A DNA stretch of 64,000 nt from Rhodospirillales bacterium (GCA_023898805.1 CP060260.1:715512-779511); one strand, 5' to 3'; positions 3-44,900 are shown, counted from the first letter of the stretch. Notes: generated from the sequence alone by a model not told the origin. A program made the numbers and translations.

Positions 3-2465
3 CGCGACACGTCCCGCCGCTTCCTGCCCGAACCGGTCAGCCGCTTCCTCCGCGCCCGCACAACCGACGCCTGGGGCCTGATTCTGCTGTGCTCCGGCGC
101 CTATGTCCTGCTTGCGCTCGCATCCTATACGCCCGGTGACCCTTCGCTTAACAACGCCTCAGCCGCCATTCCCGCGAATCTAGGCGGGCGCTTCGGCGCG
201 ACAATTGCCGACGCCTTGGTCCAGACCATCGGCATCGCGGGCATCTTGCCCGCATTGATCGCACTTGGCCGCGGTTTTATGGTCCTGCGCCGGTCCGAAA
301 CTGTGTTCGGTCTGGGGCTGCGCCTGATCTTCGCCGTTTTCGCGACCCTTGTCGCCGCCATTGCCTGCGCCCGTATCGGCGCACCGGAATCATGGGCACC
401 CGTGCCTTACATGGGCGGCGTTGCAGGTACAGGCATGCTTTCGGGCATCGCGGGCGCGATCCAGCCATGGACGGGCGGGGCGGCCTTCCTGATCACCGCA
501 CTCCTCTCTGGCGTCGCCGCCCTGATTCTGGCTGGCCTCGCGCTTGGAATGCCTGCATCCAACTGGGGCGATGCCGGGCGCATCGCCTTGTCTTTCACCG
601 CATGGGTCACGATGGGCACTGCCGCCATTGTCGCGCGCATCCACGGTTGGTTTTCATCCGGCGATGCGGACGACGATCTCTCGCCGCGCCGCCGCGCAAC
701 CACCGCGCGCAACATGCGCCGCGCCCCAGCCATCGCAAGTAGTGACGAAGATGAAGACGACGAGGAAGACGACATCGTCGACGCCGATGACGAGGATGAG
801 GACGCACAAGAAGATGAGGATGAGGACGATGACGACGGGGAAGAAGAACGCGGCGGCGGCTTGCTGCGGGCGATCAGGCCGAGCAACGATTCCCTTGTCC
901 GAAAACTGAAAAAACCCATCAAGAAAAAGAAGCCGCGCCAGAACGCTCTGACCCTGCGCGAGGATGAATGGGAATTTCCGGATATTGAAATCCTGCAAGA
1001 GGAACCGGACGAAAACGCGGGCGAGGAACACGACGAAAAAATCCTGACCCGCAACGCCGAGTTGCTGCAACAGGTGCTGGAGGATTTCAACATCAACGGC
1101 GAAATCGTGAAAATCCATCCCGGCCCGGTGGTCACACTGTATGAACTCGAACCCGCGCCGGGGACAAAATCCAGCCGCGTCATCAGCCTGTGCGATGACA
1201 TCGCGCGTTCCATGTCCGCCGTGTCCGTGCGTGCCGCCGTGGTGCCGGGACGCAATGTCATCGGCATCGAGATTCCGAACAAAAAACGCCGCATGGTATA
1301 CATGCGCTCGCTGCTCCAGACCGACGACTACGCCGAATCGAAATGCAAGCTGCCGCTGGCGCTGGGCAAGGATATCGGCGGCGCACCGATCATCGCCGAC
1401 CTTGCGCGCATGCCGCACCTTCTGGTCGCCGGGACCACCGGCTCGGGCAAGTCGGTCGCGGTCAACACCATGATCACCTCGCTGCTGTATAAGCTCAGCC
1501 CGGAACAATGCCGCTTCATCATGATCGACCCCAAGATGCTGGAGCTTTCGGTCTATGACGACATTCCGCATTTGCTCAGCCCCGTGGTCACCGAGCCCGG
1601 CAAGGCGGTGGTAGCCCTGAAATGGACGGTGCACGAGATGGAGGAGCGCTACCGCGCAATGTCCAAGCTCAGCGTCCGCAACATCGACGGCTACAACCAG
1701 CGCATCCGCGAGGCGCGCGGCAAGGGCGAGGTCCTGACCCGCAAGATCCAGACCGGCTTCGACCCCGAAACCGGCAAGCCGATCTACGAGGAACAGCCGA
1801 TCGAACTGGTCGAATTGCCGCATATCGTCGTCATCGTCGACGAATTCGCCGACCTGATGCTGGTCGCGGGCAAAGAGATCGAAAACGCGGTCCAGCGCCT
1901 GGCGCAGATGGCGCGCGCCGCCGGCATTCACATCATCATGGCGACCCAGCGCCCGTCGGTCGACGTCATCACCGGCGTGATCAAGGCGAACTTCCCGACC
2001 CGCATTTCCTTTCAGGTCACATCCAAAATCGACTCGCGCACCATTCTGGGCGAAGGCGGCGCGGAACAGCTTCTCGGCCAGGGCGACATGCTGTACATGG
2101 CTGCGGGCGGGCGCATCCAGCGCGTCCACGGCCCGTTTGTTTCCGACGACGAAGTCCAGCAAATCGTCGAACACCTGCGCGCGCAGGGCGAACCGGATTA
2201 TGTCGAAAGCGTCACCGAAGGCGGCGACGACGGCGAAACCGGCGACATGTTCGGCGGCCCCGGCGGCGGGTCCGGCGACACCCTGTACGATCAGGCGGTC
2301 GCGATCGTCGCGCGCGAAGGCAAGGCATCGACCAGTTTCATCCAGCGCCACCTCCAGATCGGATACAACCGCGCGGCAACGCTGATCGAACGCATGGAAA
2401 AAGAAGGGGTCATCAGCCCCGCCAACCATGTCGGCAAGCGGGAAGTGCTGGTTGGAAACCGCTGA
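3..2465 (+). CDS. ftsK: DNA translocase FtsK (5' end cut by window edge)
   Basis: Reading frame is open from nt 3; the track ORF 216..2465 begins at an internal TTG. N-terminal membrane part ([28 protein letters not shown]), acidic D/E linker, motor domain with Walker A GTTGSGKS and Walker [13 protein letters not shown]-terminal gamma winged helix ([22 protein letters not shown]). Confidence 0.95.
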
Positions 2466-3240
2466 CATCCGGCCTGTCACCCGCTTCGCGCCCTCGCCCA
2501 CCGGCTATCTGCACCCCGGCCATGCCTACAGCGCGATCCTGAACGCGCACGCGGGCGCGCGTTTCCTGCTGCGGATCGAGGACATCGACAACACGCGCTG
2601 CAAACCCGAATACGAAACCGCGATTTACGAGGATCTGGCGTGGCTGGGCCTTGCGTGGGAACGGCCGGTGCGCCGCCAATCGGAACGCCTTGCGGTCTAT
2701 GAGGCGCAGCTGCGCGAGTGGCACGCGCGCGGCCTTGTCTATCGCTGCTTTAAAACCCGCAAGGATATCGCGGACAGCATGGGCGCCCCACACGCGCACG
2801 CACACGCGCAGGCATTTACCGGCGCACCCGACCCGCGCGAGGACGAAAAACTGGCGCGCGGCCTGCCTTTTTCCTGGCGCCTGAACATGGCGCGCGCGAT
2901 CGAAATCACGGGCGAACGCGCCGCCGCGCGTCATGGTGACGTCATTCTGGGCCGCAAGGATGTCGGCACGTCCTATCACCTCGCCTGCGTGATGGACGAC
3001 GCCGATCAGGGCGTGACCCAAATCATTCGCGGCGAGGATCTGGCCGACATCGCCGATCTGCATATCCTGATTTTTCGCCTGCTGGGCCATACACCACCTG
3101 AAATCACGCATCACAAAATGATTCTGGACCCGAAAACCGGCAAGCGTTTCGCCAAGCGCGACCATTCCATCACACTGCATGCGCTGCGCAAACAGGGCTG
3201 GACGCCTGCGGATATACGCGCCTATGTCGGGTTGGACTGA
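2428..3240 (+). CDS. gluQ: tRNA glutamyl-Q(34) synthetase (GluRS catalytic-domain paralogue)
   Basis: [18 protein letters not shown] (HIGH-type motif) and LLRIEDID. About 270 aa with no anticodon-binding domain. Overlaps the ftsK stop; the true start could be a downstream TTG. Confidence 0.85.
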
Positions 3241-3304
3241 AAAGGTCACGACCCGCCATTTCAGCGCCTTCCCAAGGCCGCAATGCGCGCTTATGCTGGC
3301 AACC

Positions 3305-3997
3305 ATGAAAAAAATGATGAAAAACGTCCCGTTTTCTTTCGCCGCCGGAATTCTTGCGGTTCTGCTCGCATGGCCCGCCTGCGCGCAGGACGCCCGCCGC
3401 TCCTATCCGGAAACAGCCGCGCAGCGGCAAGTCGCGACTCAGGCTACGCAAATCGACGCCCGTGAATATGTGCGCAAGGCCGAAGACTGGCTGCGCAACC
3501 TGAAAACCGGCCGCGCCCGCTTCGTCCAGCAAGCCTATGACGGCAGCACGGCCGCCGGCACCTTTTATATCTCGCGCCCCGGCCGTTTGCGTTTTGAATA
3601 CGACCCGCCAGCCAAGGATTTCGTGGTCGCGGACGGCGTGTTCATCTATTTCTACGATGCGCAGCAGCGCCAGACCTCGACCGCGCCGATCGGCACCACG
3701 CTGGCCGATTTCCTGCTGCGCAAGAAGGCAAGCCTGAGCGGTGACGTCACCGTGCGCGCCGTGCGCGAACATGACGGCGTGGTGTCGATTGCCATGGTCC
3801 AGACCAAAAACCCGGACGCGGGCCAATTGACCGTCGATTTCACCCTCGATCCGTTCATGCTCCGGTCGTGGAGTGTCGTCGACGCGCAGGGCCTGACCAC
3901 CCGCATGACCTTAAGCGATCTGCAGCTCGGCGTACCCGTCCCGCCGCAATATTTCGTCTACAAGGACCCGACGGGCCGTACGCGCCTCAACAACTAG
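3305..3997 (+). CDS. lolA: LolA-like outer-membrane lipoprotein carrier
   Basis: Signal peptide MKKMMKNVPFSFAAGILAVLLAWPACAQ followed by LolA-like core (ARFVQQ, GTFYISRPGRLRFEYDPP, VADGVFIYFYD). Start moved to internal ATG 3305 (track start 3179). Confidence 0.8.
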   Translation: MKKMMKNVPFSFAAGILAVLLAWPACAQDARRSYPETAAQRQVATQATQIDAREYVRKAEDWLRNLKTGRARFVQQAYDGSTAAGTFYISRPGRLRFEYDPPAKDFVVADGVFIYFYDAQQRQTSTAPIGTTLADFLLRKKASLSGDVTVRAVREHDGVVSIAMVQTKNPDAGQLTVDFTLDPFMLRSWSVVDAQGLTTRMTLSDLQLGVPVPPQYFVYKDPTGRTRLNN

Positions 3998-4009
3998 GCC
4001 GTACGCACC

Positions 4010-4711
4010 ATGGTTTCCTCTGATACGCAACATGAACCCGGCACCATCGAAGCGAAAATCGTCGCGATCGAGGACCGGGCGGAAGATGTACGTGTCCTGG
4101 CCCTGCACCCGCAGGCGCATTTTCACTGGCGCGCGGGGCAATACGCACTGATCCACAGCGACGGTTTTGAGCCGCGCCCGTTTTCAATGGCCGCCGCCCC
4201 CTCGATGGACGGAAACATGTGTTTTCACATCCGCGACACAGGTGGTGGATTGAGCCGCCATCTCGCTAAATCCGTCAAGTGCGGCGACAGGGTATTCATC
4301 CAAGGCCCGTTCGGTGAAATGATCGCCGATCACGCAACGGCACGCCCAGTTCTGATGGTCGCGGGCGGCACAGGTATCGCGCCGATGCTGGCGCTGGCCT
4401 ATGACATCGCCCGCCGCGGCCTGACCGAGGAAGGCCTGACCTTGATCTATGGCACACGCGATGCGCAAACTCTGTACTGCGCGCGCGAACTCGACCAGTT
4501 GCGCGCGACAGGTGAATTGACCCTGCATCTGGCCTCCGGCCACATCACACCTGACCGATTGATTCAGGATCTTGCCCCCGACCTTGCGAATCATGCGATT
4601 TATATCAGCGGGCCGCACGCCATGATGCCGCCGGTCTATGCCACCCTGCGTGCGCAAGGTGCAAACCCGGCCTTCATTTACACCGACATCGAAATCCCGG
4701 AACCCGCATGA
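4010..4711 (+). CDS. FNR-family FAD/NAD(P)-binding oxidoreductase
   Basis: RPFSMA (RxYS-type FAD motif) and GGTGIAPM nucleotide-binding motif; no Fe-S domain. Stop overlaps recR start (ATGA). Confidence 0.7.
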   Translation: MVSSDTQHEPGTIEAKIVAIEDRAEDVRVLALHPQAHFHWRAGQYALIHSDGFEPRPFSMAAAPSMDGNMCFHIRDTGGGLSRHLAKSVKCGDRVFIQGPFGEMIADHATARPVLMVAGGTGIAPMLALAYDIARRGLTEEGLTLIYGTRDAQTLYCARELDQLRATGELTLHLASGHITPDRLIQDLAPDLANHAIYISGPHAMMPPVYATLRAQGANPAFIYTDIEIPEPA

Positions 4712-5310
4712 CCAGCCCCGACATCAACGATCTGATCCGCATACTCGCGCGCCTGCCGGGCGTTGGTCCGCGTTCGGCAAGACGTCTGGCCCTGACATTG
4801 CTGGAGGATCGCGAAGGGATGATGAAACCGTTGATGCTCCAGATGGAAAAGACATACGGCAATGTTCGGACATGCCATACGTGTGGGAATCTGGATGCCA
4901 GCGACCCCTGTATGATTTGCGCGGGACCACGCCGCAACCACGAAATCGTCTGCGTCGTGCAGGGCATCGCTGACATCTGGGCCATCGAGCGCACCCGTGC
5001 CTATGACGGCGTCTATCATGTGCTCGGTGGCGTGCTTTCCGCGATTGACGGAATCAAACCCGACGATCTGCGCATCGCCGAACTTTTGGAACGCGTGGCG
5101 GCAGGCGGAGTCGGGGAAATCGTGCTTGCGCTTTCCGCAACCGTCGACGGCCAGACCACCGCGCATTATCTGACCGATCGTTTGACGCAGATGAATGTCC
5201 GCATCACCCGGCTGGCCCATGGCATGCCTGTTGGCGGTGAACTTGACTACCTGGACGACGGCACGTTGACCACCGCGCTGCGCTCCCGCACTGCGGTTAA
5301 AAACGCCTGA
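4708..5310 (+). CDS. recR: Recombination protein RecR
   Basis: Helix-hairpin-helix LARLPGVGPRSARRLA, C4 zinc finger CHTCGN..CMIC, Toprim-like C-terminal half. Confidence 0.95.
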   Translation: MTSPDINDLIRILARLPGVGPRSARRLALTLLEDREGMMKPLMLQMEKTYGNVRTCHTCGNLDASDPCMICAGPRRNHEIVCVVQGIADIWAIERTRAYDGVYHVLGGVLSAIDGIKPDDLRIAELLERVAAGGVGEIVLALSATVDGQTTAHYLTDRLTQMNVRITRLAHGMPVGGELDYLDDGTLTTALRSRTAVKNA

Positions 5311-7933: not shown

Positions 7934-8343
7934 GACGCCCCGCGGCTTTTAAGTTCGACCGTGACGTTTGGATTTTTAAGGTAACCGGCGCGATACGCCC
8001 CGGCGATGTCGCCGGGCAGGGATTCCAGCGTCTGTCCCGCCGCCTCCACCGCGCCGATCAACGGCATGGCGATTTCGCCATCTTCCCCGACGATGTAATC
8101 GCCGCTCAAATCGCTTTCACCGAAAACCGTGACCTTAAGCACGTCGCCCGTGACAATCACATGTGGCACGCTGGAAACGGGTTGTGGCTTGTGGAGCGCA
8201 TCAACCGCCATCGGCGCGGCGGGCGCGCAGGCATGGTTACAGCATCCGGCCAGCACCAGCACGCCGAATATCATCAGATATTTTGAAACACGGTGGATAA
8301 AAATTGACATCATGTTGGAATCGAAAGGGGAAAAGCTGACCAC
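7930..8343 (-). CDS. Short polysaccharide export lipoprotein (Wza-type Poly_export domain only)
   Basis: Lipobox LVLAGC; GDVLKVTVFGESDLSGDYIVGEDGEIAMPLIGAVEAAGQT and YLKNPNVTVEL. Track start is GTG 8343; ATG alternatives at 8313/8310. Stop overlaps wzc-like start (ATGA). Confidence 0.7.
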   Translation of the reverse strand: MVSFSPFDSNMMSIFIHRVSKYLMIFGVLVLAGCCNHACAPAAPMAVDALHKPQPVSSVPHVIVTGDVLKVTVFGESDLSGDYIVGEDGEIAMPLIGAVEAAGQTLESLPGDIAGAYRAGYLKNPNVTVELKSRGAS

Positions 8344-8434
8344 TTATCCACAATTGTGCCGTATTCGCGAATGATTACCAAGTCCGGCATAAGAAATTTT
8401 ATGCCGGAAAACCAGGGTCGTACGGCCGTACGTC

Positions 8435-8551
8435 ATACCGATTCTCATTCATTATATGAGAATCGGTATGAGGGTTGCGACTGCAACCCGCGCGATAGCG
8501 CGAAGCCTCTCGTGGCGTCTGAACGCTTTCGTCATCGCATGATGACGAAAC
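8435..8551 (+). repeat. Structured intergenic repeat, copy A (~117 bp, several hairpins)
   Basis: Near-identical by eye to 20643..20758 over the 3' ~90 nt (aatcggtatgagg.ttgcgactgcaa..cgcgatagcgcgaagcc..gcgtctgaa.gctttcgtcatcg..gatgacgaaac). The 5' hairpin ataccg..cggtat is kept by compensatory changes. Confidence 0.6.
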
Positions 8552-8555
8552 AATA

Positions 8556-9911
8556 TCAGCGCGTTGCCACGGTCATGCCCATGACCAGAAGCGAAGGGGA
8601 ATCGACGCCATCGCGGAATTCGAGGTCGTCCGCCGGAACCATGTTGAGAAACATGTCCTTGAGGTTTCCCGCAATGGTCATCTCGGCGACGGGATGGACA
8701 ACTTTACCGCCGCGTATCCAGAATCCAGATGCACCGCGAGAATAATCCCCTGTGGAAAGCGAGATGCTCGCCCCCATCAGCTCGGTCACCAAAAACCCCT
8801 CGTCGATACCCGCGATCATGTCGTCACGCGTGACGGTACCCGCCGCGATCCAAAGATTGGACGGGTTTGGTCCCGGCGGTGACGAAAGCCCGCGCGAAGC
8901 ATGACCGCTCGGCGTAAGACCAAGCCGCCCCGCCGAACGCAAATCGAGGTATAGCCCGTTCAACACCCCGTTTTCGACCATCGCCCGCCGCGCGACCGGC
9001 AAGCTTTCCGCGTCGAACGGCACCGACCGCAGGCCGCGCGGCTTAAGCGGGTCGTCAATCACCGTGATCGCGGATGCGCACACTGCCGTACCGATACGTT
9101 CCTGCCAGAAACTTGTACCTTTGGCCTGGCGCGGCCCGGAAATCGCGCGTGAAAGCGTCCGCAAAAGCGATGCCGCGATCCGTCGATCGAACACCACCGG
9201 AAACGCACCAGTTTTTCCCGGTCTGGCACCCAGCCGCGCCAGTGTACGTGTGGCGGCGCGTAAGCCCACCGATTCTGGTTTTTCAAGATCCGTGGCATAG
9301 GTGGCCTGAGCCGAGGCATGATCGGTTTCCATCCCGTCGCCCTTGCCAGCGATCACGCCCAACGAAACATGCGTGCCGCCATGCGCATAACCGCCGCTGA
9401 AACCCGTACTGGTCGAAAGCCCGATCCAATGCACGGATTGTCCGGCCCCGGCACCATCGGAATTGGTGATGCCAGACTGTGCCAGCGCCGCATCCTCGGC
9501 TGCGCGCGCAAGATCGCCAAGCTGCGCGACCGAAAGTGCGGGCGCGGCATCGTACAGGTCTGGAATAATCCATCCGCGCGCCATTTCCGCAGGTTCCGCC
9601 AGTCGCGTGAAAGGATCTTCCGGTACCGCGCCGCACATCGCGCTCACCTGCTCGGCCAGCCGTTGCAGGCCTTCAGGGCTGGTGTCCGCGCTCGACCCAT
9701 AGGCCTGCCGTTTGCCCTTGAACACGCGCAAACCAACGCCGAAACTTTCGGCCCGCGCTGCATCCTCAAGCGCACCTTTGCGCACGCTGACATCCAGCGT
9801 CTGCGCGCGCATGGCCACGACGTCCGCCGCTTCGGCCCCTGCCGCGCGGGCAAGACGCAAAAGCTGTTCGCGAATGCCGCGATCCGGGTCTGGCTCGTAA
9901 GACATCAGCAT
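8556..9911 (-). CDS. pmbA: TldD/PmbA-family metalloprotease
   Basis: Full-length (451 aa) match in length and motif pattern to the PmbA/TldD family, including the Gly-rich C-terminal half (GDYSRGASGFWIRGGK, MTIAGN). Confidence 0.85.
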   Translation of the reverse strand: MLMSYEPDPDRGIREQLLRLARAAGAEAADVVAMRAQTLDVSVRKGALEDAARAESFGVGLRVFKGKRQAYGSSADTSPEGLQRLAEQVSAMCGAVPEDPFTRLAEPAEMARGWIIPDLYDAAPALSVAQLGDLARAAEDAALAQSGITNSDGAGAGQSVHWIGLSTSTGFSGGYAHGGTHVSLGVIAGKGDGMETDHASAQATYATDLEKPESVGLRAATRTLARLGARPGKTGAFPVVFDRRIAASLLRTLSRAISGPRQAKGTSFWQERIGTAVCASAITVIDDPLKPRGLRSVPFDAESLPVARRAMVENGVLNGLYLDLRSAGRLGLTPSGHASRGLSSPPGPNPSNLWIAAGTVTRDDMIAGIDEGFLVTELMGASISLSTGDYSRGASGFWIRGGKVVHPVAEMTIAGNLKDMFLNMVPADDLEFRDGVDSPSLLVMGMTVATR

Positions 9912-10895: not shown

Positions 10896-10980
10896 GCCCA
10901 GATGGCGGAATTGGTAGACGCGCAGGTTTCAGGTACCTGTGCCGCGAGGCGTGGAGGTTCGAGTCCTCTTCTGGGCACCA
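10896..10980 (+). tRNA. tRNA-Leu (anticodon CAG), type II with long variable arm, CCA encoded
   Basis: Manual cloverleaf. Acceptor gcccaga/tctgggc; D arm gcg-gaattggtaga-cgc; anticodon stem caggt/acctg with loop ttCAGgt; variable arm; T arm ggagg-ttcgagt-cctct; discriminator A plus CCA. Confidence 0.95.
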
Positions 10981-20409: not shown

Positions 20410-20583
20410 ATGACCGCCGCCCCCAAAACCGCACCGACCCACATCCAGGTCCCCAAAGGCGCCGACGAAGTCGCCTGCGATGGCGGCAACGGCGCACTTG
20501 GCCACCCGCGCGTCTATTACAGCTTTGATAGCGCGGACACCGTGACCTGCGGTTATTGCGACCGGGTTTTCAGCAAAAAATAG
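20410..20583 (+). CDS. Zinc-finger (CHCC-type, NDUFS6-like) small protein, 57 aa
   Basis: Not in the ORF track (<60 aa). [57 protein letters not shown] has the C..H..CxxC pattern of zf-CHCC proteins common in alphaproteobacteria. Confidence 0.75.
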
Positions 20584-20642
20584 ACTCGCCCTTCAAGATT
20601 ATAATCCTATATACTCCCCCTGCCGGTGCCATCGGGCCGGTG

Positions 20643-20758
20643 ATACCGGTTTTTATTTCTTGATAAAAATCGGTATGAGGATTGCGACTGCAAGCCCGCG
20701 CGATAGCGCGAAGCCTGCGTTGCGTCTGAATGCTTTCGTCATCGAACGATGACGAAAC
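20643..20758 (+). repeat. Structured intergenic repeat, copy B
   Basis: Same orientation and architecture as 8435..8551. Lies between the zinc-finger gene and hsp20. Confidence 0.6.
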
Positions 20759-20767
20759 GGCATGAAT

Positions 20768-20798
20768 TTGTCGCTTCTTTGCAAAGGACAAGAAAATG
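20768..20798 (+). promoter_or_regulatory. ROSE-like RNA thermometer hairpin sequestering the hsp20 Shine-Dalgarno
   Basis: UUGUCGCUU (20768-20776) pairs with AAGGACAA (20784-20791). The UCGCU motif opposes SD AAGGA with G20773 bulged. 7-nt loop; ATG at 20796. Confidence 0.45.
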
Positions 20799-21263
20799 AC
20801 GCGCCTGACACTTTTTGATTCCCCGCTTTTTTTGGGCTTTGAGCATTTTGAACGCTCGCTCGACCGGTTGAAGAAATCCGGCGGCGACGGATACCCGCCC
20901 TATAACATCGAACAAATCGGCGAAAACGGCCTGCGCATCACGCTGGCGGTCGCCGGGTTTTCGATGGACGATCTCGACGTCGAGATCGACAACAACCAGT
21001 TGACGATTCGCGGCAGACAGACGGAAGAACCGGCGCGAATCTTCCTGCATCGCGGCATCGCCGCCCGCCAGTTCCAGCGCGCTTTTGTACTGGCCGACGG
21101 AATCGAAATCGGCGAAGCGACGCTGGACAACGGCCTGCTCCATATCGACCTGCGCCGCATCGTGCCGGAAAGCCAGGTCCAGAAAATCCGGATCCAGAAG
21201 GCAGGTACGAAAACGGCCAAACCGGCCGAAAAGATCATCGAGGTGGAAGGAAGACAGTCATGA
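20796..21263 (+). CDS. Small heat-shock protein (Hsp20/IbpA family)
   Basis: Alpha-crystallin domain (YPPYNIEQIGENGLRITLAVAGFSMDDLDVEIDNNQLTIRGRQ, GLLHIDL). Confidence 0.9.
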   Translation: MTRLTLFDSPLFLGFEHFERSLDRLKKSGGDGYPPYNIEQIGENGLRITLAVAGFSMDDLDVEIDNNQLTIRGRQTEEPARIFLHRGIAARQFQRAFVLADGIEIGEATLDNGLLHIDLRRIVPESQVQKIRIQKAGTKTAKPAEKIIEVEGRQS

Positions 21264-25710: not shown

Positions 25711-25956
25711 CTAAGCCGCGTACGGATGCTTGGTCGAAGACAGGACGACGCTATCGCCCTCCGATACCGTGGTCTTGATTCTGCCATCGGCATAGACCGT
25801 GACGGTCGTCACCTGACCAGTGACACTGGTGGTCGAAGTCTGACTGACAATCGTGGTCGACGCGACAGTCGAATTCCCCGTCGACGATGTGGTCGAAACA
25901 TTCTGCAGCGAAGCGGAAGCGCCCGGCAGGATGGAAGTGATAGCGCCAATGGCCAT
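25711..25956 (-). CDS. Small Ser/Thr/Val-rich protein (81 aa)
   Basis: GGGAGG 5 nt upstream of ATG 25956. Composition is dominated by S/T/V (STTSSTGNSTVASTTIVSQTSTTSVTGQVTTVTV). Last gene of the pilus-like block. Confidence 0.45.
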   Translation of the reverse strand: MAIGAITSILPGASASLQNVSTTSSTGNSTVASTTIVSQTSTTSVTGQVTTVTVYADGRIKTTVSEGDSVVLSSTKHPYAA

Positions 25957-26093
25957 TTGCCCCTCCCATGACTGGTTATCAATTACCAGAACGGGTTCAC
26001 GCTACGCCCAGGACAGGGACCATGACACAAAAAAATGGTTAAGCCCCGCATCTGCGGGGAAAACATTTCACAACCTGTTAAAATAATTGAATT

Positions 26094-26756
26094 TTATGGA
26101 CAGGACGGCGCCACGCGTTTGATCCAGATACGCAGGCATTTCGACCCGTTGGTACAGCCATTCGTGCCATCGCCTTCGATATAATCCGACTCGCACTGGG
26201 TGAATTGCTCGTCGACCTTCTGCATTGCCTCGGCCAGATAGGGGTCGGTCGCGGTGGTCGAAATCTGGAAGAACACGCCCGTCACGTTCTGGCCGTCGAT
26301 GGTCATGTTGGTGCCGTTGCGATAAATCCATGGCGTGAATAGCGCAGGCGTCGCAGGCATGAACCGGCCTGTATCGCCGCCGAACATCGGTTGGTGCTGA
26401 TCGGTGTTGGCGCCGCCCGGATTGTTGCCGGGACAGCGCAGCCCTGCCACCGATTTGTCGGACGCGGCGTAACCGCTGGGCAAATAGGATGAATCCGGCT
26501 CAAGCGGATAATTGGCGTGATACCCGACGACGTTGATGTGATTGTCGCCTTCCGGGTATTGCAAGATGCAATCCTGAATTGCGGCGCGGATCAACTGCAC
26601 CTGCCCGTTCAGCTCCGCCGCCAGCTTGAAACTGTTCTGGGTTTGCGCCTGCTGCGAGGCGGGCTGCATGAACACCGCCGTCAGCGCCGCGATCAGCGCG
26701 ATCGCGATCAGAATGTAGATCAGCGCGCTGCCGCGCTGCGAACCGTGCCTGTTCAT
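26094..26756 (-). CDS. Atypical pilin/pseudopilin-like protein (220 aa)
   Basis: Start moved to ATG 26756 (GGAG 6 nt upstream). MNRHGSQRG-SALIYILIAIALIAALTAVF is a class-III-signal-like N-terminus without Glu5. Six Cys in the globular part. Confidence 0.6.
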   Translation of the reverse strand: MNRHGSQRGSALIYILIAIALIAALTAVFMQPASQQAQTQNSFKLAAELNGQVQLIRAAIQDCILQYPEGDNHINVVGYHANYPLEPDSSYLPSGYAASDKSVAGLRCPGNNPGGANTDQHQPMFGGDTGRFMPATPALFTPWIYRNGTNMTIDGQNVTGVFFQISTTATDPYLAEAMQKVDEQFTQCESDYIEGDGTNGCTNGSKCLRIWIKRVAPSCP

Positions 26757-26805
26757 GCGAATCTCCCCGCTAATGCCCATATGATCATGACAGACAAACC
26801 CGGCG

Positions 26806-26836
26806 AAAAAAAGACAGGCCCGAAGCCGGGCCTGTC
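26806..26836 (-). terminator. Rho-independent terminator after the 240-aa pilin-like gene
   Basis: Minus strand reads GACAGGCCCG-GCTT-CGGGCCTGTC (10-bp stem) followed by T7, 25 nt after the stop at 26862. Confidence 0.85.
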
Positions 26837-26861
26837 GAAAAGGAAAAGATGGCGGATAACC

Positions 26862-27584
26862 TTACCGCTCGGCCATCACGTAATAGAACACGTAACTGCC
26901 GCTCGACCCGTTCTGGAAGCAGCCGAACGCCTTGTTCGAGAACCAGTTGGGCGACGCCGGCGTATCCGAGGTCAGAACCGCGGTCTCGGTCGTCGGGTTT
27001 GTCGGCGCGGCGGTCGTGGCCGTCCGGTTGTTGCTGATGGTCAGCGCGGTATTGATGACCGGGATCGTCTCGTCCGAGTGAAGCTCCTTGTTCACGCGCG
27101 CGCAGATGCTTTGCGTGATGCCGTCGCCGAAGGCGATCAGCTCGTTGCCGCTGCCCGATCCGGTCTGGGACAGACCCAGAAGCGGAATTTCGAAATCCGC
27201 GTTGAACTTCCAGTCGATCGGTGTACCACCCGATGTCAGGTTGGCCGGAATCTGCTGATACGCCGCGCCCCCGCCCTGCGGGTGGAAGACGCCGCGCGAT
27301 TCTTTGCCGACGAAGAAAGTATTACCGACGCCAGAGAATTCGTCCGGCCGGTTGAAATAGATGTCCAGCGGATCGATGCCCGAAATGATCAGGCGCAATA
27401 CCGCCGTCCGCACCGAATTCGGATACTGAGTAAGCGACGCGGTGTTGATCACGTTGGTTTCCTTGGAAGCATCAGAACCCGATCGCGAAGATTGCGTGAC
27501 CGCATAGGACAGCGCCGCGAACAGCGCCACCGCGATCAGGATCAGGAACAGCACGTTCCCGCTTTGTTGTCTGTGTTTTACCAT
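26862..27584 (-). CDS. Atypical pilin/pseudopilin-like protein (240 aa)
   Basis: AAAGGAG 9 nt upstream of the start. MVKHRQQSG-NVLFLILIAVALFAALSYAV is paralogous at the N-terminus to the 220-aa protein. Confidence 0.65.
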   Translation of the reverse strand: MVKHRQQSGNVLFLILIAVALFAALSYAVTQSSRSGSDASKETNVINTASLTQYPNSVRTAVLRLIISGIDPLDIYFNRPDEFSGVGNTFFVGKESRGVFHPQGGGAAYQQIPANLTSGGTPIDWKFNADFEIPLLGLSQTGSGSGNELIAFGDGITQSICARVNKELHSDETIPVINTALTISNNRTATTAAPTNPTTETAVLTSDTPASPNWFSNKAFGCFQNGSSGSYVFYYVMAER

Positions 27585-27656
27585 TGTTTAACGCTCCTTT
27601 GTGTTGTCCGGGGCGGAAAAACCGCACCCACTGAATCCATTACTTCCATTAGGCCC

Positions 27657-28205
27657 TTACCCGGCGGGTTTGTCCACCCGCAAACGGTTAACGCTAAACG
27701 CCCCGAAAAGCCCCAGATTGTTTTTGCACTCGCGTCCGACGCATAAGGACTCGACCTGCAGACGCCAGCCGCGCCCGCCGTTGAACGCATGGCCGACTGC
27801 CTCGCGGAACGCGCCATATTTCGCGGTATCGGCGCTGCGCATCTCGATCCGGTTGGCCTGACCGACGAAATTGATTTGCGGATACAGGTCGGAAAGTTTT
27901 TTGGTGAAATCCTCCACCTCCGTGCCCGGAACCGGCACCTTGGTGATCACGGGCACGGTGGGAGTCAGGCTTTCGGCCTTCAGGATATCGGCACGCAGAT
28001 GCAGGATGTTGCTGGCCTGCATGGTGACGTAGACGACGCAACACCCGGCCGCCAGCCACGCCGCGACTCCGGCGATGATGATGCCCTGTCCCGCGCGCAT
28101 CGGCAATTGCTCAAGGAATACGTCAAGATCCTTGTACGCATTGGGCGAGAGATAGCGTTTGATGGTATCTTTATCGAATTTCAAGCGAATCGGGCCTCCG
28201 GGCAC
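27657..28205 (-). CDS. Bitopic membrane protein, GspM/PilO-like architecture
   Basis: Short cytoplasmic N-terminus, one TM (GIIIAGVAAWLAAGCCVVYVTM), ~120-aa periplasmic domain. GTG start, so the start is uncertain. Call based on architecture and context only. Confidence 0.45.
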   Translation of the reverse strand: MPGGPIRLKFDKDTIKRYLSPNAYKDLDVFLEQLPMRAGQGIIIAGVAAWLAAGCCVVYVTMQASNILHLRADILKAESLTPTVPVITKVPVPGTEVEDFTKKLSDLYPQINFVGQANRIEMRSADTAKYGAFREAVGHAFNGGRGWRLQVESLCVGRECKNNLGLFGAFSVNRLRVDKPAG

Positions 28206-28264
28206 CGGGGGAGTCAGCGCATATTGTCCCCTATAATCATAATCTTGTGAAGATTAAAACCGCC

Positions 28265-30489: not shown

Positions 30490-32223
30490 TTATTCGTCGA
30501 TATACAGGATGCCCGCGCGCGGATCGACCAGACCGCTGGTCATCAATTCGATCACGCCTTCGCGGCGCGAGCGGAAAATCACGCCCGGTTCGTCCAGCAC
30601 ATCATTCACGTTTTGTCTTAACGATTTGTAAACACCGTTGCGTTCGCTGACCGGCGCGGTAATCAAAAGCGCATCCAAAAGCAACGTCCGGCCAAGGATG
30701 CCTGTGCGGTTGCACAGATCGCACCCCGCCTGATTGTGCTTGGCCACCCCGGTATTGCCGGCAAGACCCAAACGAGCAAGCTCGACCTCGCTCAGCAATT
30801 CGTCCGCGCGCGTCTTGTGGGCGCATCCCTGACACAGGGTTTTGACCAGACGCTGGTTCAGGACAGCCTTGACCTGCTGCGCCAACGTATAGGTCGATGC
30901 CCGTTCGCGCTCGTGCGGCATCAGGGAGCGCAGACGCTCGAAAGTCTGCAACGCCGTGTCGGCGTGAATGGTCGAAATCACGGTGTGGCCGGATTCGGTC
31001 GCACGCAAGGCGGTTTCGACCGTTTCGCCGTCCCGCATCTCGCCGATGATGATGTAATCCGGGTCGTGACGCATCGATGCGCGGATCAGGTCGGCGAATT
31101 CCCCGCCCCGCATGCCGGGGCGCACCTGCCATTGTGTGGCATAGCGCAGCTCGTATTCGATCGGATCCTCGATGGTCAGCACGTGGCGCCGCCGCCGGTC
31201 GATCTGCTGGACGCAGGCGTAAAGGGTCGTGGTCTTGCCCGACCCGGTGGGACCGGACAAAAGGATCAACCCGCCGCCACCCTTGATTTCCGGCGAAAGC
31301 AGTTTTTCCAGATAATCCGAAACTTCGCCGTGGCGACGGAACAGTTCCTCGAATCCTTTAAGCCCGGCGCGGTCAAGCAAACGCAAGGTCAGCTTCTCGC
31401 CGTCCTGCCCCTGCGGCCCCGCCGCGACACGGACGTCGATCTGGCGCGCCTGCCACACAAACCCGAAACGCCCGTCCTTGGGCGTCGTCCGGTCGCCGAA
31501 ATTGAGCCCCGCGTCGCGCTTGAGCAGCGTGGTCAGACGCGCCATCGCATCGGCGGGCAAAAGATGCATCGGCATAAGATCGCCGTCGATACGGTATTTG
31601 ATCCAGTTCGGCGCATCGGGGTTGTTGTCCTGCACCAGATGGATATCCGATGCGCGCATCTGCAACGCCTCGGCCAGCATGTCGCGCAGAAACTGGTTGA
31701 GCATCAACCCGTTGTCGATGTCGGAAAGCCATTCCGCCAACGTCTTTTCGCAGCGGTCGGCCGAAAGATCGTGCACCGTGCGCAGCGTTTCGATCAACTC
31801 CGCCCGGTCCCAGATTTCCGTCTCAAGGCTTTCGACCCGGAACCCTGTGCGGCGCACGACCGAAACCAGCGTTTCCTTCTGCCGTTCGTTCATGTCGTGC
31901 AGAGGCGCGACCTTGAGCATGCCGCGATCAAGCCCGATCAGGTGGATCGACAAGGGCAGCCATGCCTGCACCGGCAAAATCGAACGCAACTGGTCGCCCG
32001 TCGCCGTGTCCTTGGCCCGCGCCTGCGTTTCTTCCTGCGTCAGGTTCAGCGCGCCGGCGGCGTCCAGCAATTGTTCGGTGGACCGGCTGATGCCCTGCTG
32101 CATCAGCATCTGCCGCTCGCGCGTCACCATGTCCAGATAACGCTCGCGCCCCTCGCCGGTGCGGCGCTGCCGGATGGTTTTTTCGCTGGCCTTTTCGGCC
32201 TGCCTGCCTTCGCTTTCGCCCAT
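30490..32223 (-). CDS. Type II secretion / type IV pilus assembly ATPase (GspE/PilB family)
   Basis: Walker A LLSGPTGSGKTTT, Asp box VLTIEDPIEY, Walker B DPDYIIIGEMRD, His box SGHTVISTIHA, tetracysteine CQGC..CDLC. Confidence 0.92.
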   Translation of the reverse strand: MGESEGRQAEKASEKTIRQRRTGEGRERYLDMVTRERQMLMQQGISRSTEQLLDAAGALNLTQEETQARAKDTATGDQLRSILPVQAWLPLSIHLIGLDRGMLKVAPLHDMNERQKETLVSVVRRTGFRVESLETEIWDRAELIETLRTVHDLSADRCEKTLAEWLSDIDNGLMLNQFLRDMLAEALQMRASDIHLVQDNNPDAPNWIKYRIDGDLMPMHLLPADAMARLTTLLKRDAGLNFGDRTTPKDGRFGFVWQARQIDVRVAAGPQGQDGEKLTLRLLDRAGLKGFEELFRRHGEVSDYLEKLLSPEIKGGGGLILLSGPTGSGKTTTLYACVQQIDRRRRHVLTIEDPIEYELRYATQWQVRPGMRGGEFADLIRASMRHDPDYIIIGEMRDGETVETALRATESGHTVISTIHADTALQTFERLRSLMPHERERASTYTLAQQVKAVLNQRLVKTLCQGCAHKTRADELLSEVELARLGLAGNTGVAKHNQAGCDLCNRTGILGRTLLLDALLITAPVSERNGVYKSLRQNVNDVLDEPGVIFRSRREGVIELMTSGLVDPRAGILYIDE

Positions 32224-32238
32224 GGCGTCGTACGTCCG

Positions 32239-33777
32239 TTACTGCGTCGTGGTCGTGGTTGTCGTCGTCCCCGTCGAGGCCGCGCCGCTGTCGCTGCCCG
32301 AGCTCGTGACCGGCGCCGCGAGCGACCGGTCGAACACCAGAAGTACCTTGTTCTTGCCGCTGGTCATCGAAACGCCGTCACGCGTCACAGTAACCACCCA
32401 TTCACGTCCCGCCAGCCGGATGGTCTGGCCGTCGCGCACCATGCGCGATCCGCCGGGACCGGAAATGATCGCGCCGCGCGTCGCCAGCGAGGTGATGGAA
32501 TATCCGTCCAGCACCGGCGGCGAATTGTCGACCGTGGTCTGCTTCACCACTGTTTCCTTGGTGCCTTGCGGTGTTTCCACGGTTTCGACCACGCTCACGA
32601 TCGGCTTGCTGTCGACATTGACGGTGGCGGTCGACGTGCCGCGGATCGGCAGCACCAGAACCCCGCGCGCGCCGGAATGGGAGATCTTGACGTCGTCGAT
32701 GACCGTACCGCTTTTGGTCGGAAGCCAGCTGATGGTCAGGGGGCAGGCCTCGGTCGGCTCCAGCGTCATGCCCTCGATGCAGCCGTCATGCAAAATTTTG
32801 AGACCCTGCTCCGAACCCGAAAGCTCGATCTTGCTCAGCGTCAGCGGCGCATCGCCGATATTGACCAAACTGACCGCGATCGAGGATTGCGAAGCGATGT
32901 CCGCGCCGAAATTGATCTCCTCCTCCGACGCGACCAGCAACCCCTTGCCCGGCACGGGTTCAGGGAATTTCTTCGCAGCCTCGGTCGTCGCCGGGCTGAA
33001 CGTGCCGGTGATGTTGGCGGTGGCGACGCCGGTCGCGCCCGTATGCTGGACCACCAGCGCGCCGGATGTCGGCCCGCGGGTCAGCGGCGACCACACGATC
33101 GAGGCGATGCACGACGCCCCGGCCTCAAGCCTTTTGCAATCGGTCTTGAGCGAGAAGCCCGACCCTTCAGGCGCGTCGATGAACAGATCGTTGACCGCGA
33201 TTTCATCGGACGTGATGTTGCGCAGCGTGACTGAACGGATGATCGGGCGGCTGTCCTGCAGCTGGCCGAAATCGACGGTGGATGGCGTAATCTCGATGTC
33301 GCTGGCCTTGACCTGATTGTCGGCGCCCTGCTGCACCGTGCCATTGACCGAGGCGGTGACAAGACGCGAACGCCCGGTATGCCGCGCCAGGACCTCGACC
33401 CGGAACGGGCCGGATTGCAACCCCTTGACCTGCATCACCACCGCGCACTGCGCGCCGGTCGCCAGCGGCTCGGCCGAGCATTGATCGGAAAACATCTGCG
33501 CGGTCACGTTCGACGACGGGAACAGTTTGACGTCGCGGAATTCGACTTCCTGCCCGGAATCGTTGCGGAATTGCACGATCATGCTGGTATTGGTGCCCGG
33601 CTCGATGGTGCCCGCGTCGACCTTGGGATCGACCGCGACCAACCCGCCCGCCGTGCCTTGCTGGGCATCCATGCCCGGATCGCTGAATGCGTTTTGCGCG
33701 CGCGCGGAAGTCGGAGCGAAAGCCCCGCACAGCAACGCCGCCAGCAGCAGAATGTATGAAGCGCGAATCCGGATCAT
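32239..33777 (-). CDS. Secreted protein: three Ig-like Cys-pair repeats + PilP/GspC-HR-like C-terminal domain + poly-Thr tail
   Basis: Signal peptide ending SARAQ. Three ~100-aa repeats (aa 47-147, 160-260, 281-381), each with a Cys pair (C100/C111, C214/C223, C333/C345). aa 421-483 (LDGYSITSLATRGAIISGPGG..VRDGQTI..W.V..V..DGV) is PilP-like. C-terminus is GTTTTTTTTQ. Confidence 0.55.
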   Translation of the reverse strand: MIRIRASYILLLAALLCGAFAPTSARAQNAFSDPGMDAQQGTAGGLVAVDPKVDAGTIEPGTNTSMIVQFRNDSGQEVEFRDVKLFPSSNVTAQMFSDQCSAEPLATGAQCAVVMQVKGLQSGPFRVEVLARHTGRSRLVTASVNGTVQQGADNQVKASDIEITPSTVDFGQLQDSRPIIRSVTLRNITSDEIAVNDLFIDAPEGSGFSLKTDCKRLEAGASCIASIVWSPLTRGPTSGALVVQHTGATGVATANITGTFSPATTEAAKKFPEPVPGKGLLVASEEEINFGADIASQSSIAVSLVNIGDAPLTLSKIELSGSEQGLKILHDGCIEGMTLEPTEACPLTISWLPTKSGTVIDDVKISHSGARGVLVLPIRGTSTATVNVDSKPIVSVVETVETPQGTKETVVKQTTVDNSPPVLDGYSITSLATRGAIISGPGGSRMVRDGQTIRLAGREWVVTVTRDGVSMTSGKNKVLLVFDRSLAAPVTSSGSDSGAASTGTTTTTTTTQ

Positions 33778-36133: not shown

Positions 36134-36470
36134 AAAAAAGAAAATGGGCCGGTTCTGTTGCTAGGTCGGCCCGCACCCCACCTCAGGCGGCTAAGCCAAA
36201 GGGATTCTACTGAGTGGTCTTTCGCACCGCTTAGGCGGCGAGAGCAACCGGAGCATAGTTGTCGTTGGCAACTACTTGTATGGCCCGTTTAAAGGCGGAC
36301 ACCATTCCTGACACCGCAAAACGCCTTTATTACCCATGTCGATCCTAAATCGGCCCCACAAAAATCCCCACATATGGGGGACTTGTGGTGGAGCCGCCGG
36401 GCTCTGCCCCCGGGTCCATTAGGCCTATTCCGCATCCGCGTGTAGCGTCATAGCCGGATCGAAACCCGGC
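36134..36470 (-). ncRNA. ssrA: Two-piece (circularly permuted) tmRNA
   Basis: Minus strand. Acceptor piece ends GGAC-CCGGG-GGCAGAG-CCCGG-CGGCTCC-ACCA (CCA at 36388-36386). Coding piece starts GGGGCCGAUUUAGGAUCGAC at 36357; acceptor pairing gives G3:U70. Tag frame 36269-36231 encodes ANDNYAPVALAA-stop. Terminal stem plus T-run at 36134-36172. Confidence 0.9.
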
Positions 36471-36476
36471 ATGTTC

Positions 36477-36504
36477 AATATACCACAAATGCGCTGATTT
36501 TCAA
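36477..36504 (-). promoter_or_regulatory. Sigma-70-type promoter for ssrA
   Basis: Minus strand TTGAAA (36504-36499), 16-nt spacer, TATATT (36482-36477). Predicted start near 36470. Confidence 0.55.
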
Positions 36505-36534
36505 GAAAACACAGGAGGTTTTACATGACCGGTT

Positions 36535-41912: not shown

Positions 41913-44900
41913 ATGAACGAGCTGACCAACCCCGCGAATTTTGAACTGGCCGCGCTTCTGGGCGATGTCGAACGCCGCAAAGACATGCTCCCCACCGGCC
42001 ACGATCTTCGCACCGCCATGGATGCGCTCGAATCCTGCCTGCGCAAAATGATCGACGCGAACCCGAACACGAACACCGACCAGGACCTCGATCGTGCCAC
42101 CGTTCAGATCAAGTCCGACGCCCGTACCGTTCTGGCCGTGATCGACCATCAATTATCCGGCCTCGATTCAATTGCTGCCGGCACGCTTAAATCGATGGTC
42201 GAAAACGCCTACACGGCGTTCGGCATATCCCAAAGGCAGAACAAGCCCGACGACATAAGCAGGCTTATGGGCATAGTACGCCTGATTGCCGAAGAAAATA
42301 TCAAACCTGCGGCATCTGAAGTATCCGCACCGCAAGGTGAACCTGATCTGCTGGCAGTGCTTAAAGAAGCTCTGTACGCACCCAACCCCACACAACCCGC
42401 CGCGCAACCGGCGGCGAAAGGCGATGCGTTAGCAGAACTGGCTGCCTTGATCGCCGGAAAAACAGCCGAGCCCGAGCCCGCTATCGCCGCCGAACCCGTG
42501 CAACCCGAACTGCAAGCTGAGCCGCAAGCCGAACCCCAACCCGAACCGATCGACAGTTTCGGCGCGGAAGGTGTGCGCCAGTACGTCCTCGACGAACTTC
42601 AATCTTTTGGCGACAACGTCCGCGACGCCTTTGAATTTATCGCAAATCGCCAGCCGGAACTTTATGTCTCCATGGCCCGTGCTTTTGATGCGGTGGGCGA
42701 ACTGGCCGAGCTGGACCCGGAGCTGCACCGGGCGCTCTATGATCGCATCCCGGCCCTCATAATTGACGAGGCCGATTCGAATTCAAACGCATACAGCCCG
42801 CTTCTCGACTCCACCTATCTCGACGGTGTCAAAGGCAAAATCGACGAGGTCGGAAAAACCACATGGCTGAAAAACAACGCTGACGCGTCTATGACACTGA
42901 AGGACCTGCTGGCCTATGGTCAGGCCGTGTACATGCTGAATGCAGAAAGGTCCGCACGCCTGCAGGCCGAACAAACACCCGCCGAGCAAACCCCTGCCGT
43001 TGAACCCGAAGACTTCTCTTACGTGTCCGCATCGTACCAGACCGAAAGACTGGACATTGCGCGTAACGAGCTTTTTGAACGCCTTGATACCATTCAGAGC
43101 GGACTGGTGAACGACCCGCATCATAAAAGAATCGGCCAGCTTGTTGAACTGGGTGTCGACGCCGGCGCTTTCTTTTCGCTTTTGTCACCCAGAGATTTTA
43201 ACGAAGCCCTGTCCCGCCTGAAGGACGCGGCACTGGAAGATCACAGCGACAGCACGCTTGTCGATATCGGGAAAAATCGCGATGTCATGCGCAATGTGAT
43301 CCAGAGTATCGTCCGCAATCCGCTTGAAGCCATTAACGCCGCTGACGAAAAAGTACTTGAGCAGAAGGGGAAAGATAAAAAAGAAGCAGACGCGCTCCTG
43401 AACAAGCATCTTGATCTGACCGGTTTTGCATCAGTATTCCAAAACGCCGTCACCGCCTTCAGCGAGTTTCTGAAGGTCCAGGCGGAAAACAACGCGGCAT
43501 TGAACAAGGCACGAGAATCGCTTTTGGCACCGCTTGAAAAGGCCGTTGCCGGCACCGCGAAAAAACAGGGCACACCCCTCGACCGCGACTCATCGAACAT
43601 GGCCGCCTCCGAAATATTGTCGCGCACCGCGCTCGAACCCGGGGCCGCAGAAATCCTGACCAGCATCCAGACCGGGCTGAATTACAGCGTGTTACGCCCG
43701 TGGGAATGGGGCGCGCCGCGCATGGCGCACGCTGCCCTTCAGTCCCTGATTTCGACCCACATTGAAATGCAAGTAAAGTGGAATAGAAACAAGGCAAGGG
43801 TGAATGCAAGGGTAGATGAACGCAAGGATTCATCAGGCACAAGCGATGCGGGATACACGCTTACCGACAAACTCGACCTGGCTGCCTCTTTGGGTCTGAT
43901 CAGAGAAGAATACGCTGGTCCGGAACAGGAAGCCTTGGATCAATTGACGAAACTTGGCGCCGAAACCCTGAAATCGCGCCCACGTATTTTGGATGCCGCC
44001 CCGGCGGCTTCGGTCGCGGAAACCGCCGCGCCCGCCGCGCCTGTTTTGGCCGAAGCAAGCGAAGCCAAAACGGATATCCCGACGGATTTCGCGGAAAAAC
44101 CGGCTGCCGAAAACCAACTGCGTCGCCTGAAAGCCAAGGTCAACGCCACGCTGGAAAGCGCTGCCGCCTTGATCAAACAAAACCCGGATACGTTGATCAC
44201 CGCTGCCGAAAACCTGCTAAACGCGGCAGCTTATGCCTCATTGTCCCGGGCGATCGACCGTGTGAATGCAATCGGCGATGACGCGAGGCAAGCCGGTGAA
44301 AACAACGACTGGACCAAAGGGTATGTCCGCATGGATATACTCTCTGCGCTGGCGCGCGACATTTTAGCGGATGGGCGCAGAACTATGACGCCCAAAGAAA
44401 ACGATGGCGTTATTAAAAAAATCGTCGAAAACGGCGACCGCGCATGGCTGGAAGCCAACGCCCAGAGCATGACCCTGCACGACATGCTGACCTTCGGCAA
44501 CACGACGGACGATACCGGCATGGCTGCTTTCCTTGAACAGGGCGTGGCCCGCCTGGTGGATGAGGAGCATTTCAATCCGAAAGCCGCGCAGGATGCCACC
44601 GACCTCCCGTCCTTCCTCAACCGCGCCGACAAACCGCGTGACCTGCGACTGGCGGGTGCCAATCTGGTCAACAGCATGATCAAGTTTGCAAAGACCACCG
44701 CCCAGCAATCCGAAGACGATCTGCGCGCGGGCGGCATGACATCGCAAGCCGCGATCGAAACCCTGCTCGACAAACAAGGTCTGCGCGATTTCATCCATGA
44801 CATCGGCATCAGCCTTTCGGAAGATACCACCGCGCTGGATCCGTATGAAACCGCCGTCCTGCGCCGCGAATTAAGCGACGCAATCGGCCAGAAATTCGCG

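Follow-up and report, generated by a model that had tools for sequence, protein, structure and literature searches.

A small multi-hairpin repeat in two intergenic spacers of a Rhodospirillales genome, one of them within an hsp20 leader

Is a hairpin-rich sequence that occurs in two intergenic spacers of one genome a conserved RNA, or a block of DNA that was inserted more than once? A preliminary description of a 64,000-nt stretch of a Rhodospirillales bacterium genome (CP060260.1:715512-779511; the whole stretch is hereafter called the window) raised this question with two copies of a ~116-bp unit, for which it proposed either a REP/MITE-like element or a small RNA family. A discrete, non-coding block of low GC content that occupies two unrelated spacers and is absent from relatives fits an insertion element better than a conserved RNA gene. 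The block is probably an intergenic insertion element that is specific to the lineage, low in GC, built of several hairpins and comparable in function to REP/BIME, RIME or BOX repeats. It looks like a small structured intergenic repeat of a new sequence family and not like a new kind of RNA gene.

We located two copies of the element in the window, in the same orientation and ~12.2 kb apart:

8435..8551, + strand: copy A, 117 nt; 145 bits in the covariance-model scan
20643..20758, + strand: copy B, 116 nt; 137 bits; the block may be 1-3 nt longer at either junction

These are the positions and the shared orientation first described, and the earlier estimate that roughly nine in ten positions agree over the 3' ~90 nt is borne out by blastn, which gives 91.3% identity over 92 nt (8461-8551 vs 20668-20758). 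Overall, the copies differ at 9-15% of positions. A 25-mer of the element has two sites in the window, namely copies A and B, and none in 100 dinucleotide shuffles. We also built a covariance model from copies A and B (35 base pairs) and scanned the window with it, filters off. Next to the 145 and 137 bits of the two copies, the best further independent match scored 11 bits, reverse-strand echoes of the palindromes aside. Copy A has the same sequence in two independent assemblies (L032 and L033), as does copy B in L001-L003. Across all assemblies examined, both copies are fixed without sequence change, and we saw no sign of excision or of presence/absence polymorphism. No further intergenic repeat families were found in the window.

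The element is a chain of four hairpins that are unrelated to each other in sequence:

A 8435-8469 and B 20643-20676, + strand: hairpin 1, 14-bp stem, with a 7-nt loop in A
A 8472-8489 and B 20679-20697, + strand: hairpin 2, GGGTTGC-GACT-GCAACCC
8491-8502, + strand: hairpin 3, CGCG-ATAG-CGCG, with no difference between the copies
A 8527-8550 and B 20734-20757, + strand: hairpin 4, 10-bp stem TTTCGTCATC/GATGACGAAA

Hairpins 2, 3 and 4 are present in copy A as the preliminary description gave them. The predicted fold of the + strand is strongly stable in both copies (-58.7 kcal/mol, z -8.3 vs shuffles for A; -53.0 kcal/mol, z -7.0 for B), and the - strand gives -56.5 and -46.0 kcal/mol, respectively. 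The stems of hairpin 4 (TTTCGTCATC-N4-GATGACGAAA) are the same in both copies and two of the four loop bases differ (GCAT in A, GAAC in B). The interval between hairpins 3 and 4, ~24 nt, is mostly unpaired in copy A's predicted fold.

Hairpin 1 is the most diverged part of the element, with differences at 9 of 35 positions (26%) vs 8 of 83 elsewhere (Fisher p=0.04). Its base, ATACCG/CGGTAT, is kept in both copies; its interior is hypervariable, and all nine differences fall in the inner 23 nt. As had been noticed from the sequence, this interior differs and yet still pairs. In the two-copy alignment, all 14 pairs are kept: 11 are invariant, two show C-G to U-A double changes, and one shows an A-U to G-U wobble change. 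A shuffle control based on pair counts is uninformative with two sequences (137/500 shuffles), and we used a direct simulation instead. When five random substitutions were placed in the hairpin 1 stem, 14/14 pairs together with at least two double changes arose in 0.07-0.5% of trials, a range that depends on the transition bias. We also considered diversity-generating (adenine-specific) mutagenesis as a source of the hairpin 1 differences and rejected it, since they are mostly C>T and G>A transitions and not specific to A.

The original claim that selection acts on structure is therefore supported statistically for hairpin 1 alone, and it does not carry over to the whole element. Hairpin 2, perfect in copy A, is decaying in copy B, where it is interrupted by one A.C mismatch and a 1-nt bulge; helices 3 and 4 never vary and so are silent on structural selection. 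Compensatory changes are reported as common in REPIN hairpins, and the fold of these hairpins is presumed to be recognised while the DNA is single-stranded (PMC3116915). The covariation in hairpin 1 is thus compatible both with mobile DNA and with RNA, and alone it is no argument for RNA function.

Copy B lies between a zf-CHCC gene (20410-20583, + strand) and an HSP20 gene (20796-21263, + strand; USO08330.1). It is sense-oriented and lies within the hsp20 5' leader, between a first stem and the stem that masks the Shine-Dalgarno (SD) sequence:

20600..20612, + strand: promoter-like box ATAATCCTATATA, a putative promoter; present in three of four relatives (L022, L025 and L023), CCCCCATATAAT in L027
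20623..20640, + strand: ROSE-like stem I, CCGGTGCC-ATCG-GGCCGG, directly 5' of the copy B insertion point
20770..20789, + strand: ROSE-like SD-masking stem, GUCGCUU...AAGGAC, kept despite the insertion

A UCGCU anti-SD sequence (20771-20775) pairs with the SD sequence AAGGA (20784-20788), leaving a bulged G, and the SD sequence lies 7 nt before the ATG at 20796. This pairing is conserved in four relatives and occurs in every predicted fold; the predicted fold of the 195-nt leader, with copy B in it, retains the SD-masking stem. The hsp20 leaders of all four relatives have the same predicted two-hairpin fold with the bulged G in the SD stem. A U(U/C)GCU sequence opposite the SD in the 3'-proximal hairpin is a hallmark of ROSE-like thermometers (PMC3669281). 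Short two-hairpin ROSE-like versions are found in Pseudomonas, where the second hairpin alone is enough for thermosensing, and in ROSE1 the upstream hairpins help the sensing hairpin to fold properly (PMC3669281). The best Rfam match to a relative's intact leader is ROSE (RF00435; 21.6 bits vs a gathering threshold of 45, E 0.22). This match is good at stems I and IV (the SD stem) and skips 31 positions in the middle of the model; the leader falls below the gathering score because the two middle hairpins are missing. A permissive Rfam scan of the window's own hsp20 leader, with the insertion, gave no ROSE match. From these predicted folds, the hsp20 leader of the clade appears to be a short two-hairpin 'mini-ROSE' thermometer variant in uncultured Rhodospirillales, at the following positions:

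20600-20795, + strand: mini-ROSE leader in the window
3405-3478: mini-ROSE leader in L022
9925-10000: mini-ROSE leader in L025
9930-10000: mini-ROSE leader in L027
9925-10000: mini-ROSE leader in L023

Judged from the alignment with these leaders, copy B is at the exact joint between the two putative hairpins. If the conserved box is a promoter, copy B must be transcribed within the hsp20 mRNA. We rejected copy B itself as the hsp20 thermometer, since the thermometer parts are its flanks, which are conserved in relatives without the element. Two promoter/terminator sites reported at copy B are artefacts that span the element junctions.

Comparison with relatives bears on how this arrangement arose. 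In the nearest sampled relatives, PmbA is 67-72% and Hsp20 77-84% identical to the window's proteins, and gene order is conserved at both loci in four relatives. The zf-CHCC-hsp20 spacer measures 94-100 nt in L022, L025 and L027 vs 212 nt in the window. By alignment, the window's spacer equals the relatives' leader plus one uninterrupted block of ~117 nt. The parts common to the window and its relatives are ATAATCCTATATA (three of four relatives), CCGGTGCC-N4-GGCCGG and GTCGCTT...AAGGAC. At the junction, the window reads GGGCCGGTG, then the block ATACC...GAAAC, then GGCATGAATTTGTCGC, whereas L022 reads GGGGCCGGAT followed directly by GCATTTGTCGC; against this empty site in the relatives, copy B shows no duplicated bases. 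On this alignment, an insertion at hsp20 is well shown.

The pmbA-wza spacer is also longer in the window (212 nt vs 53-138 nt in relatives), and it is alignable only over a motif adjoining wza. We did not find the element in the pmbA-wza or zf-CHCC-hsp20 spacers of the four relatives, and a covariance-model search of the relatives' loci returned no copy. At the pmbA site, gain is not formally separable from loss, because the spacers are unalignable and the relatives distant.

Copy A lies between the PmbA/TldD gene (8556-9911, - strand; USO08316.1) and a Poly_export (wza-like)/Wzc gene pair, antisense to pmbA and wza, so that the gene context first described holds for both copies. The conserved Arg-stop end of pmbA, CGC TGA (stop codon 8556-8558, - strand), is followed by 4 nt and then by the element. 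In the minus-strand pmbA transcript, the stem of hairpin 4 begins ~5 nt after the stop codon. Scans for promoter and terminator consensus sequences flanking copy A (sigma-70-type promoter, intrinsic terminator) found none on either strand. By its position, copy A's 10-bp hairpin could act on the pmbA transcript, either stabilising its 3' end or hindering termination. Liang, Rudd and Deutscher are said to have reported in 2015 that E. coli REP hairpins near a stop codon affect the upstream gene.

A second palindromic feature adjoins copy A on its other side:

8420..8431, + strand: GC-rich 12-nt perfect palindrome GTACGGCCGTAC, 3 nt left of copy A

At each of the two insertion sites, the element thus follows a GC-rich hairpin after 2-3 nt. 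A target preference for GC hairpins 5' of the insertion point is a speculative reading of these two cases (n=2). A 9-bp hairpin, CCGGCATAA-N6-TTATGCCGG, is also present left of copy A at 8384-8407. Neither this hairpin nor the palindrome at 8420-8431 has a T tail on either strand.

We also observed a conserved motif, CGAATA(C/T)GG-N5-6-TGTGGATAA, a short distance before the wza-like/wzc genes of the window and three relatives. Its sites are 8341-8369 in the window (minus strand; TTATCCACA at 8345-8353 on the + strand), ~1733-1762 in L018, ~11398-11427 in L019 and ~11274-11302 in L021. TGTGGATAA is the reverse complement of the DnaA-box consensus. The motif may serve the polysaccharide-export operon as an operator or promoter element. 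As for the wza-like gene itself, its start is probably near 8312 (MMSIFIH...) and not at the GTG at 8343.

The composition and the ends of the element characterise it further. Its GC content is 0.48-0.51, below the 0.60 of the whole window and the 0.57 of other intergenic DNA. Indels between the copies disrupt all reading frames, and six-frame translations of both copies had no match at E<=10 among 5.8 billion predicted proteins; the statement that the unit encodes no protein therefore stands. Both copies have the same sharp ends, without co-transferred flanking sequence. These ends are not terminal inverted repeats (TIRs): when the first 25 nt are compared with the last 25 in reverse complement, 7/25 positions agree in A and 9/25 in B, which is chance level. 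The preliminary description had suggested looking for target-site duplications (TSDs). Neither copy has a direct repeat longer than 3 nt within a few nucleotides of either junction, and the two sites have no target motif in common beyond GT-N before the left end. With no inverted repeats, no target duplication and no common motif beyond GT-N, the ends point to no particular mobilisation mechanism. GC skew is negative across the whole window, placing both copies in one replichore.

We searched for further copies and for an enzyme that could move the element. No third copy is present in ~80 kb of the same genome (the 64-kb window and ~16 kb of flanks, ~4% of 1.94 Mb), and none in ~100 kb of distinct relatives' sequence. 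Searches of plasmids and phages by blastn gave no match, and viral contigs scanned with two blocks of the element gave none. In JGI metagenomes, a 25-nt 5' block had no matches and the 3' hairpin had one (L028), which covers the hairpin only and lies in an unrelated low-GC context. The source species is absent from the pattern-searchable collections, so the empty scans there are weak evidence. Across the window and its ~16 kb of flanks, Pfam searches and scans revealed no gene for a transposase, an integrase or a Y1/RAYT-type protein.

A scan of a genome collection with the central 19-mer returned 14 matches, mostly in Acidobacteria MAGs, that share only a 19-20-mer with the element. We rejected these as copies of the element, regarding them as chance matches or an unrelated repeat. 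In the Acidobacteria MAG contigs, each locus contains several occurrences of the 19-mer GCGCGATAGCGCGAAGCCT and its close variants:

2196-2355 and 4109-4199: recurrences of GCGCGATAGCGCGAAGCCT in L005, an Acidobacteria MAG
34-5133: recurrences of GCGCGATAGCGCGAAGCCT in L006, an Acidobacteria MAG
1762-4529: recurrences of GCGCGATAGCGCGAAGCCT in L014, an Acidobacteria MAG

Three of the L005 copies are spaced ~36 nt apart. This arrangement suggests that the Acidobacteria copies belong to an unrelated repeat family or array that has a GC-rich palindromic core in common with the element by chance.

Comparison with Rfam had also been proposed, and no family matches the element. At the gathering threshold, the whole window yields only a tmRNA and a tRNA. 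A permissive scan of both loci adds generic hairpin matches to miRNA models (15-24 bits vs thresholds of 67-83). The tmRNA gene (36143-36508, - strand) is of the alphaproteobacterial two-piece (permuted) type, scores 233.9 bits and precedes genes for thymidylate synthase and DHFR; we saw neither an integrase nor an island adjoining it. A tRNA gene lies at 10896-10977 (+ strand).

Several other features of the window are recorded here in their own right. A 2040-aa open reading frame at 41913-48035 (+ strand), which adjoins glycosyltransferase and RNase E genes, has no Pfam match at E<=0.001 and could encode a large uncharacterised protein, perhaps a surface or repetitive one. An N-acetylmuramoyl-L-alanine amidase gene (51188-52645) contains three tandem 15-nt units (CCCGAAATCGCCGTC) at 51824-51881 (+ strand), which encode a short in-frame peptide repeat. 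At 25726-28250 and 30736-33730, around a T2SS-F/secretin (pilus or secretion) cluster, several open reading frames have no Pfam match. Some of these calls, for example 30736-33234 (+ strand), are probably wrong-strand artefacts of high GC, because relatives have a T2SSE ATPase gene on the opposite strand at the same position.

In the reading that we favour, the element would have inserted into at least two intergenic spacers after this lineage split from its nearest sampled relatives. It would be a member of, or be left over from, a family of dispersed repeats like REP/BIME, RIME or BOX. Its mobilisation may have been in trans, through an enzyme that is encoded elsewhere and recognises single-stranded DNA in folded form. 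Such recognition would explain why inverted repeats and target duplications are absent and why hairpin 1 kept its pairing despite drift. The wider family and the mobilisation mechanism are what we infer here. Placement shows both surviving insertions in what should be harmless positions, 4 nt past the end of pmbA and at a leader's hairpin joint that leaves the predicted SD stem intact. The 9-15% divergence between the copies, with 26% in a hairpin 1 that nonetheless pairs, suggests different master copies or long constraint, and hints that further copies exist or once existed. Against this reading stand the number and spacing of the known copies (two, 12 kb apart) and the lack of a nearby mobility gene, TIRs or a TSD.

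These last points would be expected if the sequence had been duplicated or patched just once from one locus into another nearby, through template switching or illegitimate recombination for instance, with no dedicated mobility and no family. The two known copies have the same orientation, are 12.2 kb apart and lie in one replichore; TIRs, a TSD and (in the window and its flanks) a transposase are all absent, and no copies were found in the collections searched. However, those empty searches weigh little given the absence of the species from the pattern-scanned collections. Both sites look like gains, so a source copy would be needed from elsewhere; the sharp ends carry no flanking sequence along; and the pattern of divergence, with hairpin 1 fully paired, fits different masters or long constraint better. 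We regard a one-off event as decidedly unlikely. A functional cis-acting RNA module, kept by selection on RNA structure, is unlikely as well. It would serve at hsp20 as a thermometer extension or buffer or as 5' protection, and at pmbA as a 3' stabiliser, insulator or termination modulator. Copy B does lie in sense in a 5' UTR, at the place where canonical ROSE has internal hairpins (the 31 skipped positions), the SD stem persists in the full-leader fold, and the ROSE1 precedent has upstream hairpins aiding the sensing hairpin (PMC3669281). The compensatory changes in hairpin 1 are improbable by chance, its A-U to G-U change pairs on the + strand and gives a C.A mismatch on the other, and copy B folds 7 kcal/mol better as the + strand than as the - strand. 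The strand preference, however, comes down to a single wobble pair, and helix 2 is decaying in copy B. Moreover, four relatives use the same hsp20 leader without the element, and in Pseudomonas the second hairpin suffices for thermosensing (PMC3669281). The copies are also opposite relative to local transcription, and the known genes therefore cannot yield the same RNA at both sites.

Opposite orientations also count against the small RNA family that was one of the two original candidates. Cast as paralogous genes for an independently transcribed, trans-acting small RNA, it is highly improbable. A length of ~117 nt, several hairpins and a strongly negative z are typical of small RNAs, and the ~24-nt unpaired stretch between hairpins 3 and 4 could be a seed, but this putative seed holds four of the eight differences outside hairpin 1. 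Consensus scans found no sigma-70-type promoter or intrinsic terminator at copy A, hairpin 4 has no U tail in either copy, and copy B sits within the span from the hsp20 promoter-like box to the SD. None of the relatives compared has the element, and it has no Rfam match. A bolder version of the insertion reading, which we think quite improbable, is a new family of hairpin-defined mobile elements of uncultured Rhodospirillales that insert directly 3' of GC-rich hairpins, leave no TIRs or TSDs, use single-strand-specific machinery and remodel RNA leaders. If true, a two-hairpin ROSE-like thermometer would have become a six-hairpin leader, with measurable consequences for heat-shock control.

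The finding that we favour, an insertion element, is modest: it adds one small structured repeat from the intergenic DNA of an uncultured lineage that is poorly sampled. It does offer a clean natural case in which a putative RNA thermometer leader tolerates a foreign structured block at its hinge, a case that bears on the modularity of ROSE-like thermometers. It is also a caution for the prediction of small RNAs and riboswitches, as dispersed copies with compensatory changes mimic a conserved RNA and relatives reveal the insertion. If the genome holds many copies, they would constitute a new repeat family, which would help in strain typing and in the search for its mobilising enzyme.

Several known families resemble the element in part. 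Its REP/MITE-like side, the other original candidate, survives in that a discrete block occupies two unrelated sites and is absent from the relatives' spacers, and fails in the strict sense of a MITE. Like the MITEs Correia/NEMIS, ERIC and RUP, the element is ~100-150 nt long, non-autonomous, intergenic and strongly folding, and such elements are often co-transcribed with their neighbours. TIRs and TSDs were tested for and not found, so the element is not a MITE; a parent insertion sequence and plasmid or phage matches are likewise lacking. Pneumococcal BOX elements offer another likeness, as modular chains of distinct structured units. An IS200/IS605-type derivative (PATE) was considered because the element has end hairpins and no TIRs or TSDs. 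We rejected it: the end hairpins are unrelated, the 5' flanks have only GT-N in common and no Y1 transposase was seen in the window or its flanks, which leaves a PATE-type origin as speculation.

REPs carry a conserved 5' GTAG-type tetranucleotide, and the REPINs of gamma-proteobacteria are mobilised by RAYT tyrosine transposases. The element resembles REP, BIME and REPIN sequences in being extragenic and non-coding, with stable hairpins and no TIRs or TSDs, and in its location, close behind stop codons and between genes that share an operon. As in REPINs, compensatory changes keep hairpin pairing (PMC3116915). It differs in architecture: a REP is one imperfect palindrome of ~20-40 nt and a REPIN an inverted REP doublet, whereas the element consists of four unrelated hairpins, does not form one long hairpin and is therefore not a REP or REPIN. 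The GTAG-type tetranucleotide is not evident in it. Genomes with REPs have tens to hundreds of them and a RAYT gene adjoining them, vs two copies and no RAYT in ~80 kb here.

Likeness to ROSE (RF00435) concerns only the host leader of copy B, in which the GC-rich stem I fits the consensus and UCGCU is imperfectly paired with the SD. The element itself is a foreign block in that leader and is also found at pmbA-wza, where there is no thermometer. In architecture, the element resembles RIME1/RIME2, the Sm-repeats and the AB/C palindromes of Sinorhizobium, which are likewise alphaproteobacterial, intergenic, ~100-200 nt long and palindromic. Rhizobial genomes of the Alphaproteobacteria contain dozens of structured intergenic repeats of unknown function, and the RIME and Sm-repeat families have both sequence and secondary structure in common (PMC2573895). 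RIMEs differ from the element in having dozens of copies and in their host order, Rhizobiales vs Rhodospirillales here. RIME and Sm-repeats also mislead small RNA predictions, as this element did.
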